DNA of 17,557 bases from an uncultured archaeon (GCA_964645535.1 CAZYCQ010000062.1:1-17557); one strand, 5' to 3'. Shown: positions 446-17,363, numbered from the stretch's first letter. Program-made: numbers and translations. Notes: generated by a model from the letters alone, not told the origin.

Positions 446-2569
446 ATGAAAAGGGTTTACAGTACCTATACCATGATTTTGCTTCTAGCAGTTTCTTTGG
501 GGTTCATCAATCTTGGAACCCAAGTCTCTGCCGATGCGACAACCACCTTCCAGACCGGCGATCGCCTAACCTACGTGGGTGATTCGTTCTATCTGGATTA
601 TGGTGAAAACAGTTTTACTGCATATATCGATCCTGAGAACAACGGCACATTCTTCCTCGGCAGGGATGAATGGAAATTGACTGAGTTTGTTCTGGATGGG
701 AATACATCAGCCGATGTTTTTGTCATCCGGAATGAACGAGGCTTTGACTCAATTTTCCTGATCAACACCAATACCGAGGCATTGCCTGGAAGTTATTGGA
801 ATGCGACGTCCTATGTTTACGATAGCGATCCGAATGTACCTCCCAATGACGGCAATTTCTCAGATTATCAGGATCTGAGTGGGCAAATGGATCATGAGTT
901 CAACCGTGAAGATTCCTCTGCCAATGCGACCTATGCCTACATGCCTCCTGAGTTTTTTGCAGGGGACTTTATTGTTCCCGGTTTGGATTTCGGTGGTGAT
1001 GCAGGTTTTGTCCTTCCCGATCTGTCTGTGAGTGTGACGAAAAGCGTGAGTACCGGTACGGGTAGCTATGTGATCAACGGGCAGAATTTCACCAACCTTT
1101 CCTTGAGGGTCTTTACCATGCGGGCCTTCGGAAGTATTGCCGGAACCATGAACATTACCATTCCTACACCTGAATTCGATGCTATTGCTGCAATGGATTA
1201 CAATGTGACCTATCTGAATGAAGTGGAATTTGTCTATGATTCTGCCACAGGCATTCCTTTGGAGATAAATCGCGATGAATTTTTCTGGGTTGACGGTAAC
1301 TTCAGCACCGGAGCATTTACCACCATGATGTATGATGAATTCGGAGTTCCTTTCAACGTCACACTTGATATGTCCGGTGATTTCTTCTTTGAAAACGACA
1401 ATGTTGAGAACCTTCAGTTGGCATTTGCCAGCAGCCATTACGGTCTTGCCCGTCCTGTTTCATTCGGTGATCCTCCCCTCAAGGAGAATGATGTTCTTAC
1501 CTATGATTGGGGACAATACGGCGACTTTGAAATCAGTGGATATGTTCAAGGGGAGTTGTTTGACGAAAATGGCACCTTCATGAACAACATCATTTCCACG
1601 AACCATATGACTTCAACAGAGGAAGGTTCGGGAACCACTTCCGTTGAGGTGTACCGTCACTATGCTGATGCATTTGAGGCTCTCATTTGGACTGAGGGTT
1701 CCATTAATAGGCAGGAAACAAGTGAGGAGAGTTTCTACGATGGGTTCCAGTGGAACAACAATTCATACACCTCTCCTGTGGACACTTCTCCGGTGATGAA
1801 GGTCATGCCCCTGTTTTCATCTTCGAACTCCTCACTTGAGATGTGGATTCCTCCCTTACCTAGCTATCCAAATCCGATGTTCGAAGGTGATGACAACGCT
1901 GATGGGCTTTTCGGTGGGGATCTCTTCGGTTTACCGATCGATTTCAGTGTGATCCCTCATGACATCCCGATGACAGGTTCCTTTGTTCAGACAGAAGGTC
2001 CCTATACTTATGAGATCAACGGCTTCACCTTCGAATTCCCTGTGGATGTCTTCACTTATGAATACGATTCCAGCTTTAGTGACACCCAATACTTTGACAA
2101 TTATCAGATCATTCTCAGTGGTTCTCTCTCAGTCACTGCAACTGATGTCTATGATCCTGTCACGGGTGTCTTGGTGGAAAGGGGTCTTGACATGAGCGTT
2201 ACGTTGTCAATTCAGGTCATGGAGATGGCACAGCCTGCTCAGAATGGTCCTTCTGAACCCGGCATGCACCTGGTTGAAGGGAGCTTGGATCTTGCAGCGA
2301 GTTTCTCCGAATGGAACGTACTTACTGCACACCCCCACAAGTACCTTGAAGCTCCTCCCACCAACAACACGTCGGTACCTTCTTCGAATTCCACCAGTCC
2401 CACTGAACCTACCGACACCAATACTTCCACATCAACTGCAAATACCAGTGCGACTACCAACGGCACCACTTCCTCTCCCTCTTTCGAGAGTCCCTTGCCT
2501 GGTTTTGAATGGGCAGCACCTCTGACTGTCTTTGCAACATTGGTGATCCTGAGGAAACGCCGCAGCTAA
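446..2569 (+). CDS. Cell-surface glycoprotein (707 aa) with two tandem ~310-aa domains and a PGF-CTERM-like sorting signal
   Basis: N-terminal signal peptide (MKR + hydrophobic stretch + VSA-D). Very acidic, beta-rich body with many N-x-S/T sequons and a Ser/Thr/Pro/Asn linker. The C-terminus is LPGFE + hydrophobic helix + RKRRS, the tripartite PGF-CTERM pattern. Confidence 0.85.
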   Translation: MKRVYSTYTMILLLAVSLGFINLGTQVSADATTTFQTGDRLTYVGDSFYLDYGENSFTAYIDPENNGTFFLGRDEWKLTEFVLDGNTSADVFVIRNERGFDSIFLINTNTEALPGSYWNATSYVYDSDPNVPPNDGNFSDYQDLSGQMDHEFNREDSSANATYAYMPPEFFAGDFIVPGLDFGGDAGFVLPDLSVSVTKSVSTGTGSYVINGQNFTNLSLRVFTMRAFGSIAGTMNITIPTPEFDAIAAMDYNVTYLNEVEFVYDSATGIPLEINRDEFFWVDGNFSTGAFTTMMYDEFGVPFNVTLDMSGDFFFENDNVENLQLAFASSHYGLARPVSFGDPPLKENDVLTYDWGQYGDFEISGYVQGELFDENGTFMNNIISTNHMTSTEEGSGTTSVEVYRHYADAFEALIWTEGSINRQETSEESFYDGFQWNNNSYTSPVDTSPVMKVMPLFSSSNSSLEMWIPPLPSYPNPMFEGDDNADGLFGGDLFGLPIDFSVIPHDIPMTGSFVQTEGPYTYEINGFTFEFPVDVFTYEYDSSFSDTQYFDNYQIILSGSLSVTATDVYDPVTGVLVERGLDMSVTLSIQVMEMAQPAQNGPSEPGMHLVEGSLDLAASFSEWNVLTAHPHKYLEAPPTNNTSVPSSNSTSPTEPTDTNTSTSTANTSATTNGTTSSPSFESPLPGFEWAAPLTVFATLVILRKRRS

Positions 2570-2887: not shown

Positions 2888-4024
2888 ATGAGTGAAGAAG
2901 TAACCGGAAGACCCCTCGTTATTGATAATGGTACTGGTCTTTCCAAGAACGGTTTTGCAGGAGAGGATCAGCCAAGATCCGTCTTCCCCACCTTGGTTGG
3001 CTATCCAAAATACCAATCCATCATGACTGACGTCGACCACTATGTAAGGGACTACTACATCGGAGATGAAGCTCTTAACCTTCGTGGTGTCCTGAAACTT
3101 GAATACCCCATCGAACACGGTGCAATTGAATCCTGGGATGCAATGGAAAAGATATGGAACTTTACGTTCTTCAATGACCTGAGGGTCAATCCCGCAGAAC
3201 ATCCCGTCCTCCTGACCGAGCCTCCTCTCAATGCCCTTTCAAACAGGGAAAAGATGGCAGAGCTCATGTTTGAGACCTTTAATGTCCCTGCACTCTATAT
3301 TTCCATGCAGGCTGTGCTTTCCCTCTATGCATCCGGAAGAACCACTGGTATCGTCGTTGACTCAGGTGACGGTGTTACCCACGTTGTCCCTGTCTATGAA
3401 GGATTCGCCATCACTCATGCCATCAACAGGATCGACATCGGTGGACGTGACATTACGGACTACCTCCGAAGGCTGCTCAGGCAGAGAGGCTATTCATTGA
3501 CCTCCAGCGCTGAGAAGGAAATCGTCCGTGACATCAAGGAGAGGCTGTGCTATGTTGCCCTCGATCCTCAGAAGGAACTTGCCTTGGCAGACAAGGTCTC
3601 CGGAATGGAAAAGAGCTATGTCATGCCTGACGGTGACACCATCACCATTGGACAGGAGAGGTTCTTGGCACCTGAACTCTTCTTCAATCCCAGTGCAATG
3701 GGATCTGAGGAGCAATCCATGCCTGAACTGATCTATAACTCCATCAATGAATGTGACGTTGACATCAGACCTCACCTCTACAGCAACATCGTTCTTTCCG
3801 GTGGATCAACCATGTTCCCCGGTCTGAAGGAGAGATTGCACAAGGAGCTCAGCTCAATGGTGCCAGAAGCAGTCGAGATCAAGATCGTCGCCCCGCCCGA
3901 AAGACGCTATTCCGTCTGGATCGGCGGTTCCATCCTTGCCAGTCTCAAGACCTTCAACAAGATGTGGGTCAGCCGCAAGGAATACAATGACTCTGGACCC
4001 AAAGCAGTCTACAGATGCATTTAA
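2888..4024 (+). CDS. Actin (Asgard actin, conserved Lokiactin type), 378 aa
   Basis: Colinear with eukaryotic actin throughout: phosphate 1 [65 protein letters not shown] (phosphate 2), [40 protein letters not shown]. The D-loop [15 protein letters not shown] and the RCI C-terminus are Asgard-like rather than eukaryotic. Confidence 0.98.
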
Positions 4025-6587: not shown

Positions 6588-7877
6588 ATGGAATTAGGTC
6601 TAGCCCATCACGACCCGAATGATCCGAACTTCACTTCCCATGTCTTCATTTGGAGAGATAAGGCCTACTGTATAGGTTGTACAACCAACAAGGTCTTCAT
6701 GCATCTTGTCCTGCCTGTTTTGGTGGTGGGGCTGCTCTCAATTGGCACTTCCGAATTGATGATTTTCGGAACACTCCTTGGATTTTCCACAGCGATTACA
6801 TCCTACGAGGTCTTTAAAGGTCACCGTTTGGGAATCTACCTGCAAATGATCCCTAATCTTTTTACCATGTTCTCCCTATATTTGGTGGCGACAACTCCAG
6901 TTGATCTGGAGCTTCTACAAAGGCTTGCTATCGCCACTGTGCTGACATTCCCTCAATTCGGAATCTATGGTTTCAAAATCCTTGCACAACGTGATTTCAA
7001 CAGAAAACCTGTGAAATTCATATCTCGTCTAATGTTTATTGTTGGATTTTTCTTTGCCCTCACCGGATTTGTTGAGGCGCCGGTGCAGGCCGGTCTGTAC
7101 ATCGGAGTGGTGGCATATCTCTTTTTCAGGATCCGTGAATTTTCCTCCCATATCGTAGGTGGAAACTCCCATGCGCTCCTTCCGGATTGGGTCTATCCCC
7201 TTATTTCCCGTTACTCTTCCCTGACCGTCCCCCTTATGCTTGTTCTTTTCATGTTAGGGATTGCAAAGTTTCCCTCTTCCCAAACCTGCTTTGTCTCAGC
7301 GGGTGCAGTTCCATTTCTTTCCCTCAGTAACCTAAGCTACTGTCCCAATTGTGGTGATCCAGTTGAGCCTCATGAGAAGTTCTGTGACAAATGCGGCACA
7401 AGTCTATCTCAAGCAACTCCTTCCAAGGCAATGGATACTCCTCCTCAAGGGGCATACCCTTCCCAAGGTCAATATCCACAAGGGCAGCAACCTCCCGCTC
7501 AATATCCTCCCAATCAATATCCACAAGGACAACAACCTTCTGGTCAGTATCCCCCCAGTCAATATCCTCCCGGTCAGTATCCACAGGGAGGATATCCTCC
7601 TCAATCGGGAGCCTATCCGGGATATACTGGTGCCTATCCTGGAAGCATGACTCGTCCAAGTTCTGAGGAAGATAAATGGAAGGCTGCTGTCGGTGTTGGT
7701 ATTGGAATTGCCGTTCTCGTTTTCCTTCTCACTACAAACATTGTCTCCGCAATTGTTGCTGGAATTATCGGCGGGATCGGCACTTATCTTTTCCTATCAA
7801 CTGACAACTGCTGTATCCAATACTGTATTCTTGATACTTGTTCTGACTGTATCTGCTCAATTATTTCAGATGACTAG
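6588..7877 (+). CDS. Multi-pass membrane protein with a zinc ribbon, Pro/Gln/Tyr/Gly repeats, a C-terminal TM hairpin and a Cys-rich tail
   Basis: N-terminal HH...H...YCIGC (DUF2085-like), then about 7 hydrophobic segments, then YCPNCG-x7-FCDKCG. A pentapeptide xQYP(P/Q) repeat follows, then two Gly-rich TM segments and [16 protein letters not shown]. Confidence 0.85.
7449..7643 (+). repeat. Coding 15-nt degenerate tandem repeat (xQYP[P/Q] pentapeptides, then GAYPG x2)
   Basis: [45 protein letters not shown], with CA(A/G)TATCC recurring at multiples of 15 nt. Confidence 0.85.
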
Positions 7878-10620: not shown

Positions 10621-12174
10621 TCAATTGCATACAGGATGATCAAAGTAAACCGACACTTTCGATAGCCCAATTTCCCCTCTAATTCCAAACGGGTCGGTTG
10701 TTCGCAGAAGAGGTTTTATTCTAACTCCATCTGACCAAGTTCCAAGATCTGTGTTTTCAAGAATGGGTGAAAGTCCCCCTTTTCCCAAAAGAAATTCTGC
10801 CATGCCTATGAGTCTGCTTAGAAATGCCTGATGGTAAAGAACTCCTTGAATGAGGTCTGTTGGAGTATAGTGGTTTGCAAGTTCTCTTGGAAACCCATGA
10901 AAGTCCGTTTGGACAGTGATGAATGAGACATTTTGGAGAACCCCTTTTCCATCACGGGAACGAATCCGTTCAAAGAGATGTGCTGTCAGGCATCCTGGAA
11001 CCACATTGTCCCTGTCATAGAATACCACATTTGCAACAGTTTCATTGGGGAGTTTAGTCATATTTCCTTTTAGAGTATCAACCCATCCTGCTTCAATATC
11101 CAATGCCAATGAACCATTTGCCCATCCCTGCTCAATTACTTTGGTGGCTATGAAGGGCACCATTCCCCCTCCAAGCGAATGACCCGCTATCATCACTCTG
11201 GTCAAATCAAGATTGTCGGAACCCATGCCTATTTCGCTAGTTTCTTGTAAAATACTTCCAATGACGGTTTCAATCCCCTCCCAGACAATCCGATATCTGT
11301 AAGGGTTTTCCTTTATGATTTTCGGCTTTTCTTTGAGTTCTGGATATTCTTGATCTGCAAGCGCTTCAATTTTTTTGTCAAAGGTTGTTGGATATTGCAC
11401 ATAGATACCAAAGAAACCTCGTGAGGCAATCTGTCTCATTGTCTGGTCATAATATTTTGGATCCGTTCCCCCATGGCCATGAAGGAAAATGAAAATTGGT
11501 ATCTTGACTGGAATTGGATGGGGAACATAAACGAATGTAAACCAATTGTTTCCAGTATTCTCAGGAACTGCGAGTTCCCTGATGGTCTTATTGAAATCAT
11601 TGTCAAGTTGGAATCTTTCCACCTCATATTTTCCAAATTCAGTCTCAGTTAACCCTGGCGATGGTGCTGGAGCAATTCTAGCAACAAGGGATGGTGTAAT
11701 CAAGACCAACATTAAGCTTGTGACAATGATCATTCTTACAATATTCCCCTTGTCTTTACTCTTCCATGCCTCCCATCCCCATATCCCCGTTGGAAACAGC
11801 AACAGACTTCCAAGGACAAATGGGAAATACTGGACTGCCTCCATGAAAAAGTTGATGTTAAGAAGGAAGAATATCGTAACCATTCCAATGGTCAATCCAA
11901 AAAGGAAGTTTGAGGCCTGTAACGCTTGTTGTCGCCATTGTGGTAATTTCAGGAGAACAGACAGGCTCATACTAACTGGAATTAGAAATGTCAGCATCCA
12001 GGCTCCCGATGATTCGTAATTTGGACGAACCCTGACAATCATCTCCGCAATTCGTTGGAAAGCGTACCAAATGGATCCGGTACTTAACCAAAGCCATCCC
12101 AAAAAAGTCATGGGAAGTGCAATTCCGGCAATAAATGCTGATTGTTTCATCTGTCGTTTCTGAACCACACCCAT
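10621..12174 (-). CDS. Membrane-anchored alpha/beta-hydrolase (chlorophyllase/cutinase-like)
   Basis: About 5 N-terminal TM segments, PIFIFLHGHGG (oxyanion region), IASRGF.GIY and the nucleophile elbow AGHSLGGG. Candidate acid residue in YDRDNVV and candidate His in LANHYTP. Alternative start at ATG 12150. Confidence 0.88.
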   Translation of the reverse strand: MGVVQKRQMKQSAFIAGIALPMTFLGWLWLSTGSIWYAFQRIAEMIVRVRPNYESSGAWMLTFLIPVSMSLSVLLKLPQWRQQALQASNFLFGLTIGMVTIFFLLNINFFMEAVQYFPFVLGSLLLFPTGIWGWEAWKSKDKGNIVRMIIVTSLMLVLITPSLVARIAPAPSPGLTETEFGKYEVERFQLDNDFNKTIRELAVPENTGNNWFTFVYVPHPIPVKIPIFIFLHGHGGTDPKYYDQTMRQIASRGFFGIYVQYPTTFDKKIEALADQEYPELKEKPKIIKENPYRYRIVWEGIETVIGSILQETSEIGMGSDNLDLTRVMIAGHSLGGGMVPFIATKVIEQGWANGSLALDIEAGWVDTLKGNMTKLPNETVANVVFYDRDNVVPGCLTAHLFERIRSRDGKGVLQNVSFITVQTDFHGFPRELANHYTPTDLIQGVLYHQAFLSRLIGMAEFLLGKGGLSPILENTDLGTWSDGVRIKPLLRTTDPFGIRGEIGLSKVSVYFDHPVCN

Positions 12175-12207
12175 TAAAGGATTACTTACTAGCTAATCCC
12201 CTTTTGG

Positions 12208-12219
12208 AAAACTTATTTA
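12208..12219 (+). promoter_or_regulatory. BRE/TATA-like element in the 65-nt divergent gap
   Basis: AAAAC-TTATTTA ends about 21 nt upstream of ATG 12240, supporting that start over 12135, which would overlap the hydrolase head-to-head. Confidence 0.45.
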
Positions 12220-12239
12220 CTCATATTCCATCCAAACAC

Positions 12240-13424
12240 ATGGATGCAGATCAAGTGGTTTTCCTAGGATGGACGCTCTCCATTTTCTTCACTGCAATCT
12301 GCATCTTTCAGACAGGGCTCATCATACTGAAACGTGGAATTCCCATAGTGATGAAAACCATCTCCGGATATTTTCTGATCTCGATATGGTCTTTTGCTGC
12401 ACTGACTGTTGCAACATTTATTCCTCCTGAGGAACGAGTTATCCCCATCATCCTTGTTGTAATCCTTTTCATTATTTCCACCCAGCAGATTATCATTGCA
12501 AACTCCTTCATTAAGGGAGATACCGGCTTTATTGTACGATTGATGCTTGCTCTTGGCTTGATCGGTCTAGGGTTACTTTTCGCCCAAGGTATCTACCCAA
12601 CAATATCTTTTGTTTCAATAGTGGAAAGTGAAGGATTTTACTATTCAAAAATTCAATCTGTATTGCTTCTTATCTTGACTGCCCGAGGCCTATTCCTCTT
12701 TTATCTATTTGGATTTGTAATCACGAAAATTTTTACAGATTGGCGAATCCGTTCGAGTCGACCATTCCTCTATGCTGCCGCAAGCTTGGGTATCGTTTCC
12801 TTCACCATCATTTTTGTTCATTTTCTTCTTGTTCCTCTTATCGATAATTTAATGATCAATACCCTTATCTTTGTTTCCGTTCGTTTGCTTGTCATTCTTG
12901 CCATTGTCCTATTGAACATAGGTGTTCTAATGAACACACGATACGTCTTGGCTACACTTCGAGGAATTTCCGAAACTTTCTTCAGCAACATATTGAAATT
13001 TGCCATCTATACCTACGATCTGCATGGACCTCAAGTGCGGTTTTCCCATGGTTTTGAGAATGGGCATTCCGATGAGGACATCGTTTTCATCCGCCTTCTT
13101 ACACTGGGAATGGCTGGTCTTTCAATTCTTGGACGGGGTGATGATCATGTTGAAGGATCTGCAATCATCCCTGTTGTGGATGGGGAGAGCCAAGAAGGTC
13201 TGATTGTGAGCAAGTGGGTTGGAAACGGCGACACCAAAACCTTTCTCTCCATTCTCATTGTAGTCGATCCACAAAGACTGTGGTTGATTCAAGACCGATC
13301 CATTTGGGAATTTGCCTTGAATAACTACCTTGAATCAGCGAAAGATATCTCTGAAGTTGATTTTGAAGAGTTATTCACTTTCATCAAGGAATTGATGGTC
13401 GACATCAGCATAAATCTCGTATAA
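12240..13424 (+). CDS. 7TM membrane protein with a cytoplasmic C-terminal longin/uDENN-like domain (394 aa)
   Basis: Seven hydrophobic segments in the first ~240 aa, with a longer loop between TM4 and TM5 (HisKA-7TM-like layout). A soluble ~145-aa domain follows, beginning LKFAIYTYDLHGPQVRFSHG. The CDS is secure; the domain call is by motif resemblance. Confidence 0.7.
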   Translation: MDADQVVFLGWTLSIFFTAICIFQTGLIILKRGIPIVMKTISGYFLISIWSFAALTVATFIPPEERVIPIILVVILFIISTQQIIIANSFIKGDTGFIVRLMLALGLIGLGLLFAQGIYPTISFVSIVESEGFYYSKIQSVLLLILTARGLFLFYLFGFVITKIFTDWRIRSSRPFLYAAASLGIVSFTIIFVHFLLVPLIDNLMINTLIFVSVRLLVILAIVLLNIGVLMNTRYVLATLRGISETFFSNILKFAIYTYDLHGPQVRFSHGFENGHSDEDIVFIRLLTLGMAGLSILGRGDDHVEGSAIIPVVDGESQEGLIVSKWVGNGDTKTFLSILIVVDPQRLWLIQDRSIWEFALNNYLESAKDISEVDFEELFTFIKELMVDISINLV

Positions 13425-13446: not shown

Positions 13447-14026
13447 ATGCATAGCTTTTCTGCAACCCATTCGAAGCTCTCTTTTGAGATAAGCCCACGA
13501 AATTACATGGAAATCAACGTATGGAGAAAATGTATGGAACAAATTTTGGAGGATATGGTGCTCCTTACTACGCAGATACTTGGATTTATTCATTCACAGA
13601 AAATAATTGGATCAAGAAAGAGTCAACCGTCTCTCCTTCCTATCGTTCAGACGCAAAACTTGAATTCAGTCCTGTCTTGAAAAAGCCCGTGCTTTTCGGT
13701 GGATCTAGCAAGGTTGCAGACGACAAGCTTTGGATTTATTCGGAAAAAGCACTTCTTCATGGATAGACTTGGATTTGCCGACAACTTCTGGACAGCGTTC
13801 CCTTCACGATTTTGCAATCGGTAATTCCACAGGAATTGTCTATGAGGGCAATTTTCTGAAAACAACATTTCAACTTAATGTAACGAAGGTTAACCTTGAG
13901 GATACTTTGTCCGATACCAGCGCCGAAAAAGTTTCTTCTTCAGCAGGTGTTGCCTTATTAACCCTGATTGCGATTTTACCCCTTATCCAACGTAATATTC
14001 CACAAAAGAAAACTCGAATGTCGTAA
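13447..14026 (+). pseudogene. Frameshifted, 5'-degraded Kelch-repeat surface protein remnant
   Basis: Frame 13521..13766 has two Kelch blades (FGG..Y.DTWIY....W......PSYR; VLFGG......LWIY). The expected continuation (STSSWIDL...GQRSLH) is in another frame (13730..14026), switching at the A5 run 13744-13748, and ends in a hydrophobic anchor plus basic tail. There are too few blades for a propeller and no signal peptide. The 5' boundary is uncertain. Confidence 0.72.
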
Positions 14027-14224
14027 ACTGATTTTGCAAAATCAATGCATGGACAATTTCGGTTGCAATAATTTGAACCCAAAAAAATGTCTGTAAAGAA
14101 TCTTTGGCAGAAAGTTGTGTAAAGTTTCACATCCTTGGATTTCTAAAATCCAAAGCATCATCTCCATGTAAATTGAAAATGGATTTTCACCATACAACAA
14201 TCTTTTTCTTGACAGAAACATGCT

Positions 14225-16487: not shown

Positions 16488-17363
16488 CTACCAAAACCTC
16501 AGCTTTCTGAGAATGGGACATCTGTCACATAGGGATAGATTGCAAGTGTCATCAAGTATTTTCTGTGCATCTGGATCATGCGGATCAAGGGATGTCAAAA
16601 TGCCTTCCATCAGCTGAAGATAGGTTTTCATTTGATGTTCCTTTCGAAATGGACCCTGAATGACATTCAAAAGAGTTTCAAAATCATCGCCACTATGGAT
16701 ATTGTCGTCCGTAAGAATAAACTGGCCTTTGCTTCCCACTACATAAAATGGCTCGCAGTGATAATATCCCATGGCTCTTGAAGGAACACATGGGACAAGA
16801 TCCTTTGCATACAATATTTCATATCTGTCCGTGAAGGCAGTCCTCATATAGTTTGAAAAATCTTGATTCCCTATTCTTGGTATGGCAAATCCATAATACA
16901 CGATCTCAGAGGCATACCTTGCCTTAAGCTCAGGAAGCGCTATCTCTCCAATTGCTGCACCATAGGAGTGACCCGTAACATAGATGACCTCAACATCATC
17001 CTTAATGGGATCGATACAGGTGTATACTGCATCTCGGATTTGACCCCATGCCTGATAAAAACCACTGTGGATCTTTCCTGTATGGTTTGGATAGTCCACA
17101 AGATCAAATTGAAGATTATCCCAAATGTCAAAGATATGATTGGTTCCCAAAAGAACAATATACACATTCTTCTTCGCTTCTGACATATCCTGTATTGCCA
17201 CGTATCCCTGTGCATTTCCAGTTCCATCCATAGCCGCGGCAAAATCAACGACCAACTGGGTACAAAGGCTTGAATTTGAAGGAATGGATGGATTGTCGAA
17301 ATCCAAGTATAACGACTCAATGTAGCCTGCCAAATCTTTTGCAAGATTCTGATTGAATGGCAT
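16488..17363 (-). CDS. Class 3 lipase (Lipase_3) family protein
   Basis: IVLLGT (oxyanion), KIHSGFYQAW, IYVTGHSYGAA nucleophile elbow, GFAIPRIGN..F, KDLVPCVP (acid), GYYH and EHQMKTY (His). Its stop directly abuts the MFS stop. Confidence 0.93.
   Translation of the reverse strand: MPFNQNLAKDLAGYIESLYLDFDNPSIPSNSSLCTQLVVDFAAAMDGTGNAQGYVAIQDMSEAKKNVYIVLLGTNHIFDIWDNLQFDLVDYPNHTGKIHSGFYQAWGQIRDAVYTCIDPIKDDVEVIYVTGHSYGAAIGEIALPELKARYASEIVYYGFAIPRIGNQDFSNYMRTAFTDRYEILYAKDLVPCVPSRAMGYYHCEPFYVVGSKGQFILTDDNIHSGDDFETLLNVIQGPFRKEHQMKTYLQLMEGILTSLDPHDPDAQKILDDTCNLSLCDRCPILRKLRFW

Follow-up and report, generated by a model that had tools for sequence, protein, structure and literature searches.

The longin domains of FLCN (folliculin), NPRL2, SMCR8 and C9orf72, together with a class of Asgard longins, have in common a GP motif that precedes the second strand and spatially adjoins the arginine finger; FNIP2, NPRL3 and other longins lack it (PMC12290439). 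In FLCN, the loop formed by residues 10-16 (Phe10, His14 and Pro16) contacts RagC and Arg164 is the arginine finger (PMC9473554), and an adjacent Arg-Asn has been confirmed for yeast Npr2 (PMC12999518). How the numerous eukaryote-like small GTPases of Asgard archaea, and their longin and roadblock regulators, are put to use is an open question, in which pairings are hard to assign because regulators and GTPases are rarely encoded together (PMC10933270). Here, we describe a gene in a stretch of 17,557 nucleotides (GCA_964645535.1 CAZYCQ010000062.1:1-17557, hereafter the window) from a Heimdall-group Asgard archaeon. The gene, at 12240-13424 (+), encodes P0001, a protein of 394 aa (plus stop) in which a seven-transmembrane (7TM) module is followed by a C-terminal longin domain.

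P0001 has no detectable sequence similarity to the pairs FLCN/FNIP, NPRL2/NPRL3 or SMCR8/C9orf72. Unlike FLCN and SMCR8, it lacks a DENN domain and, unlike NPRL2, it lacks the NPRL2-type C-terminal domain, so that the protein ends with the longin. Whereas FLCN, NPRL2 and SMCR8 are brought to the membrane by partners, the longin of P0001 is fused to 7TM helices; it retains the GP motif but has lost the candidate finger Arg, and any GTPase-activating-protein (GAP) activity of P0001 is putative. The Lokiarchaeal Roadblock-Longin (8yqg), with 12-19% identity, differs in being soluble, fused to a roadblock domain and devoid of a membrane module. The Asgard NPRL2-like or FLCN-SMCR8-type longins (Liu et al.; PMC12290439) carry a homologous domain with the GP and Arg motifs in common. 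Judging by the descriptions in these papers, the family of P0001 appears to be the same as the published Asgard longin class.

The novelty of the architecture is less than the first-pass annotation of this locus assumed, since bioRxiv 10.1101/2020.10.19.343400 (Liu et al.) already describes Asgard NPRL2-like longins fused to two-component signalling domains. In the main texts of Liu et al. and PMC12290439, transmembrane or 7TM fusions are not mentioned, and no paper on a 7TM-longin protein was found in the literature searched. The 7TM-longin protein is thus a new architectural arrangement within an already published class of Asgard longin-signalling fusions.

Fold and motifs of the longin tail

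The tail, residues 246-394 (149 aa; 12975-13421, +), was modelled on its own with AlphaFold2 (AF2) from a 23-sequence tail alignment, giving a predicted local distance difference test (pLDDT) score of 90.5 and a predicted template modelling (pTM) score of 0.86. In this confident model, β1 (253-260, FAIYTYD) and β2 (263-270) are followed by a helix (279-297), by strands at 306-314, 316-327 and 334-342 and by helices up to 393, and P0001 ends one residue past the last longin helix. In the numbering of the model, DSSP assigned E8-15, E18-25, H34-52, E61-69, E71-82 and E89-97, then three helices. There is no N-terminal helix, and this β-β-α-β-β-β-α-α-α order is that of the longin fold. The domain starts near nt 12975-13000, close to the position of ~12990 proposed from the sequence, and the strands and helices named in the first-pass annotation recur in the model in the order given there.

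When the model was compared with the PDB, Foldseek ranked the Lokiarchaeal Roadblock-Longin 8yqg first, followed by the FLCN-FNIP2 complex (6ulg_N), the Lst4 longin (4zy8) and GATOR1, the top matches having probabilities of 0.99-1.0 with E-values of only ~1e-3. A second structural aligner, independent of Foldseek, was also run on the tail model. It retrieved the lysosomal folliculin complex (6nzd_H; score 11.2, 132 residues, 3.2 Å), the Lst4 longin (4zy8_C; 10.7, 126, 3.5 Å), the Lokiarchaeal Roadblock-Longin (8yqg_B; 10.6, 137, 3.8 Å) and GATOR1 (8fw5_B; 9.6, 130, 3.4 Å). Chain 6nzd_H is presumably FLCN, judging from its residue range of 2-268. Lower-ranked matches were all longins (adaptor sigma subunits, C9orf72-SMCR8, CPLANE, DENND10, sedlin, Mon1-Ccz1 and VAMP7). 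The best matches are GTPase-regulating longins and not longins of the SNARE type, and the closest solved relatives are those anticipated by the first-pass annotation, i.e. the folliculin/FNIP(Lst4)/NPRL/C9orf72-SMCR8 group. As modelled, the tail is a longin fold of the folliculin/NPRL2/SMCR8 type.

Pfam profiles were silent. Longin (PF13774, SNARE type) matched neither P0001, nor its tail, nor any of the 23 family tails, which is no argument against a longin fold because this model covers SNARE longins only. Folliculin (PF11704) had no match in the genome of origin, and NPR2 (PF06218) had none in 47 genomes of the order, a result that is uninformative as the control genomes were also blank. 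Assignment of the tail to Roadblock/LC7 was rejected: the domain opens with two strands instead of an N-terminal helix, and PF03259 matched neither the P0001 tail nor the family tails. A two-copy complex prediction of the tail scored 0.00 and, having been run without controls, counts neither for nor against dimerisation.

A 30-sequence domain alignment spanning all architectures of the tail superfamily revealed four near-invariant features: the Gly of the GP motif, a G.G that follows helix 1, a strand-3 Pro and an Arg of the β4-β5 loop. In P0001, the GP motif is H262-G263-P264 (13023-13031, +), located in the β1-β2 turn by the superfamily alignment and the definition in PMC12290439; its Gly is conserved in at least 90% of the 30 aligned longin-type domains. 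The strand-x-GP-strand start picked out in the first-pass annotation is therefore the published GP motif of GAP-type longins, and the FLCN sequence given there, FCELHGP, agrees with the placement of Phe10, His14 and Pro16 in PMC9473554.

The β4-β5 loop has the superfamily consensus W..D..Q.D.R..G.TY, and its Arg is kept in 28 of the 30 aligned domains. It is deleted only in P0001 and its ortholog P0003, where the alignments and tree delimit a shortened loop (W326...K333 in P0001; 13215-13238, +). In a maximum-likelihood tree, this Arg-less pair is a terminal clade (support 100/99) inside a group of Arg-bearing 7TM-longins, which marks the loss as a recent and specific one. By strand topology, the β4-β5 loop and the GP turn are at the same end of the sheet. 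We take the fingers of FLCN (…KDSLARG…) and NPRL2 (…YSRN…) to be in the same β4-β5 loop as the family Arg, which would be the equivalent of the FLCN R164 and NPRL2 R78 fingers. Its deletion in P0001 and the ortholog suggests that P0001 may act as a non-catalytic partner. Alternatively, R299 could be a substitute for the lost residue. It lies in the helix1-β3 loop, in G298-R299-G300 (13131-13139, +; family and superfamily alignments), where both glycines are near-invariant in the superfamily and the Arg between them is usual in the 7TM clade, with Gln in its place in soluble relatives. R299 is kept in the nearest relatives of P0001.

The seven-helix module

The membrane module (12255-12935, +) was delimited by hydropathy, model helices, conservation and a positive-inside count. 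Kyte-Doolittle windows gave seven hydrophobic stretches, as originally proposed, and a full-length AF2 model, built from two sequences only (pLDDT 48) and used for helix counting and not for fold searches, draws seven long helices with a β-hairpin in the loop between transmembrane helices 4 and 5 (TM4-TM5). Approximate limits, all on the + strand, are 12255-12329 (TM1), 12363-12425 (TM2), 12438-12509 (TM3), 12528-12596 (TM4), 12654-12728 (TM5), 12762-12833 (TM6) and 12849-12935 (TM7). Conserved polar or small residues occur within the helices: GY..L...W in TM2, Q82 in TM3, G106, G111, Q116 and P120 in TM4, R149-G150 in TM5 and R215 in TM7.

The orientation of the module was assessed in 16 full-length family members, in which loops 1, 3 and 5 and the 25 residues that follow TM7 together contain 140 Lys and Arg residues, whereas the N-terminus and loops 2, 4 and 6 have 29. 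By this charge bias, the predicted topology of P0001 is N-out, C-in, which places the longin tail in the cytoplasm, in keeping with the C-in orientation proposed in the first-pass annotation. The outside loops have only 5, 4, 19 and 5 residues, so any sensing would take place within the bundle or the membrane. The sole sizeable exposed loop is that between TM4 and TM5 (residues 121-138; 12600-12653, +), which forms the β-hairpin of the low-confidence model and, in the ortholog alignment, shows a conserved S.G.YYSK motif.

In having seven helices, an N-out/C-in topology and an output on the cytoplasmic C-terminus, P0001 resembles 7TM receptors such as G-protein-coupled receptors (GPCRs) and 7TMR-DISM proteins. 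However, its output is a fused longin and not a separate heterotrimeric G protein or a kinase or cyclase domain, and none of the 7TM families in Pfam or NCBIfam matches the 7TM module in sequence. A 3+1+3 duplication within the module, of the SWEET/PQ-loop type, was also considered and found to be unsupported (hhalign probability 0.2%).

Distribution and possible roles

An exhaustive profile search of 1.84 billion representatives retrieved only 23 proteins, i.e. P0001 and 22 others. Among 400 genomes of the phylum, the 7TM profile had matches in eight, six of them strong and all within one order, and every match was directly followed by a longin. The survey of Asgard genomes that had been suggested at the outset recovered the architecture; no GTPase or roadblock gene was seen beside it in the genome of origin or, among the matches listed, in five relatives. 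Relatives of P0001 are encoded on two contigs of Candidatus Heimdallarchaeota metagenome-assembled genomes, as found by a related-locus search with a narrow family alignment. The genome of origin (3.6 Mb, 89% complete, in which the window is contig C62) encodes four 7TM-longins (contigs C62, C5, C22 and C31), which fall in four separate subclades and are therefore old and maintained; the three paralogs bear the Arg that P0001 lacks. With 22 other cluster representatives, three further copies in its own genome and an ortholog of 51% identity at a locus of conserved synteny, the pattern of P0001 is not due to chance.

The tail is far more widespread than the 7TM module. Its profile had matches in 82 of the 400 Asgard genomes and, in the genome of origin, also retrieved two proteins that consist of the domain alone (186 and 201 aa) and two soluble proteins of greater length. 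Within single genomes, the tail is homologous to standalone, receiver-, PAS- and TPR-fused Asgard longins at E-values of 1e-8 to 1e-20. The longin-type domain follows Response_reg (E 6e-19), TPR arrays (E 2e-33) or membrane segments of other kinds, and precedes a PAS domain (E 9e-8). Since it is found both alone and in fusions with receiver, PAS, TPR or further membrane parts, it behaves as a signalling module, and it constitutes an Asgard-restricted family of modular signalling domains. The earlier idea that a longin can serve as a signalling output gains support from these fusions. For annotation, this means that a longin domain has been left unannotated in many Asgard proteins listed as 'response regulators' or 'hypothetical membrane proteins'.

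Proteins of ~284-302 aa that combine a receiver with the longin-type domain are found in Heimdall- and Thor-group genomes (L044:1111-1962, +; L033:1489-2394, -; and ~30 more), their public names being only 'response regulator' or 'CheY-like', with the longin output left unannotated. Long TPR arrays ending in a longin-type domain make up proteins of ~600-740 aa (L026, L032, L036 and L039, from G068, G141, G139 and G137, respectively), and the complete genome G137 has at least nine TPR-longin genes, a lineage-specific expansion. In L022, L023 and L045 (from G044, G043 and G078), other multi-pass membrane modules that the 7TM profile does not match precede a closely related longin tail. The longin domain may have become attached to the membrane on several independent occasions, or its membrane part may diverge fast.

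The explanation to which we give about an even chance of being correct as a whole is that P0001 is a subunit of a membrane-anchored, gated longin platform. The seven-helix bundle would anchor the longin at the cytoplasmic membrane face and would probably gate it on a small or membrane-borne ligand; the outside loops are tiny, and polar residues are conserved within the helices. The longin domain would bind a GTPase of the Ras superfamily (Rag-, Arf- or Rab-like), in the manner of eukaryotic longin pairs. If the deleted Arg was indeed the catalytic finger, its lineage-specific loss would have left P0001 as a non-catalytic platform subunit comparable with FNIP, NPRL3 and C9orf72, which may hold or present a partner and could be paired with one of the three Arg-bearing 7TM-longin paralogs. 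Sensing, GTPase binding and heterodimer formation are all putative steps. A fuller version, in which a ligand-gated 7TM receptor directly switches a Rag/Arf-like GTPase at the cell membrane through an Arg-bearing/Arg-less longin pair (as in FLCN-FNIP or NPRL2-NPRL3) and the eukaryotic lysosomal nutrient-sensing longin GAPs descended from such receptor-coupled modules of Heimdall-group archaea, appears doubtful to us.

Several observations weigh against the platform model. In sequence searches, no Pfam, NCBIfam or PDB entry matched P0001, its tail or the family profiles, and neither FLCN nor NPRL2 is linked to the tail at that level; the connection with these two is one of fold and short motifs only. 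The putative equivalence of the family Arg with the FLCN and NPRL2 fingers is deduced from strand order and the finger sequences, not from superposition, and with the Arg missing, GAP catalysis by P0001 alone is unlikely. Longin folds also occur in SNAREs, adaptor sigma subunits and the signal recognition particle receptor, where they do not catalyse on a GTPase. Ligand binding by the 7TM part is no more than a candidate role. Although the genome of origin has at least 31 Ras-like GTPase matches, a Rag-like gene included, and five roadblock (PF03259) genes, the 10 kb on either side of its eight longin-family genes contain none of these and no other longin gene. The same holds for GTPases and roadblocks beside the 7TM-longin orthologs of five relatives, among the matches listed, and the neighbours of the paralogs are unrelated housekeeping genes (leucyl-tRNA synthetase, amidase, oxidoreductase and DUF6997). 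With no GTPase near any family member, we can only infer coupling to one. Of the GPCR-like route from sensor to GTPase read into this gene at first, the fold, the motif and the topology are borne out; the link to a GTPase finds no counterpart in the neighbourhood, and a catalytic role is undercut by the loss of the Arg.

The most credible of the other explanations, though still an unlikely one, is that the longin tail has no connection with GTPases and is a dimerisation or docking module of an Asgard-specific signalling pathway. It might relay a signal to transcription factors or two-component proteins, or serve as a membrane-remodelling adaptor like the SNARE and adaptor longins. Such a role would be consistent with the missing genomic link to any GTPase, with the absence of the conserved Arg from P0001 and with the commonest partners of the domain (receiver, PAS and TPR), which belong to classical prokaryotic signalling. 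A gene 680 nt downstream of P0001 (14104-15009, +), whose 301-aa product has weak winged-helix matches (HTH_34 and TrmB, below cut-offs), would also fit. However, this neighbour is not conserved, no counterpart being present in the 1.5-kb flanks examined beside relatives. The missing synteny with GTPase genes is weak evidence, because Asgard GTPases are generally not in operons with their regulators (PMC10933270). Moreover, the best structural matches of the tail regulate GTPases and are not of the SNARE type, the GP motif is reported to be specific to the GAP class (PMC12290439), and a GAP would need an Arg such as the near-invariant one of the relatives.

It is also improbable that the seven helices are a tether and not a receptor, i.e. 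that they only anchor the longin, to which GTPases or longin proteins would be recruited constitutively without any ligand. Lipidated LAMTOR1, which anchors Ragulator, offers a parallel. The outside loops leave no room for an ectodomain, the 7TM module is never found alone or with another output, unlike typical modular sensor domains, and other Asgard lineages have this longin on unrelated membrane segments (L022, L023 and L045). Nevertheless, seven helices in which Gln, Arg, Pro and Gly positions are conserved exceed what an anchor needs, since one or two would suffice, and the four diverged paralogs kept per genome suggest different specificities.

Finally, a roadblock, PAS, GAF or profilin-like domain that merely resembles a longin is highly improbable, and a non-longin fold is effectively excluded by the agreement of the AF2 model, Foldseek and the second aligner, on which the original identification as a longin and not a PAS, GAF or roadblock domain also holds.

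Under the platform model, a folliculin/NPRL2-type longin carried on a 7TM module fixes the site of the platform at the cytoplasmic membrane face and suggests an input. The four paralog tails, three with the Arg and one without, form a small, defined set that can be tested against the ~30 GTPases of the same genome. If pairing with a GTPase proves true, it would be relevant to how the lysosomal nutrient-sensing GAP complexes arose; if there is none, the domain family would represent a new kind of archaeal signalling output module.

Gene limits and genomic surroundings

The whole gene was placed at 12240-13424 (+) on the basis of the open reading frame (ORF), the public gene call and a start common to the ortholog. 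The open frame spans 12135 to 13424 (+), and the start at 12240 is preferred because P0003 begins MDAG at the position aligned to MDAD of P0001 (MDA being conserved), because the public call is the 394-aa form and because a longer form would overlap the divergent gene at 10621-12174. The upstream ATG at 12135 was rejected: the in-frame extension (12135-12239, +), which covers the 5' end of that gene, is not conserved in the ortholog and is judged to be untranslated.

The divergent gene (10621-12174, -) starts 65 nt from the P0001 start codon and keeps its position beside the ortholog. Its 517-aa product has ~4 N-terminal transmembrane helices and weak matches to alpha/beta-hydrolases (esterase/lipase/PHB-depolymerase). 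The upstream order as a whole is kept at the ortholog locus (actin, zinc-ribbon membrane protein, 625-aa protein, divergent 4TM-hydrolase and then 7TM-longin), the block being headed by a eukaryote-like actin at 2888-4024 (+) (PF00022, E 3e-137); the conserved order does not extend to the downstream genes. For the small ORFs at 13447-14130, the loci of relatives contain no homologs, and these ORFs are probably not genes. A second lipase gene, Lipase_3, lies at 16488-17363 (-). At the other end of the window, 446-2569 (+) encodes a secreted protein of 707 aa, whose C-terminal helix weakly matches Heimdall-CTERM (NF045529, E 0.0014, below cut-off).

Elsewhere in the genome of origin, a roadblock gene (G000:C19:6701-6970) is directly upstream of an Arf/MglA-like GTPase gene (7122-7667, +). 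This MglB-MglA-type pair on C19 is the only regulator-GTPase adjacency seen in the genome. The best Rag-like match (Gtr1_RagA, E 2.6e-27) is at G000:C2:74909-75433 (-), within an open frame of 530 aa, and is hence fused to further domains.
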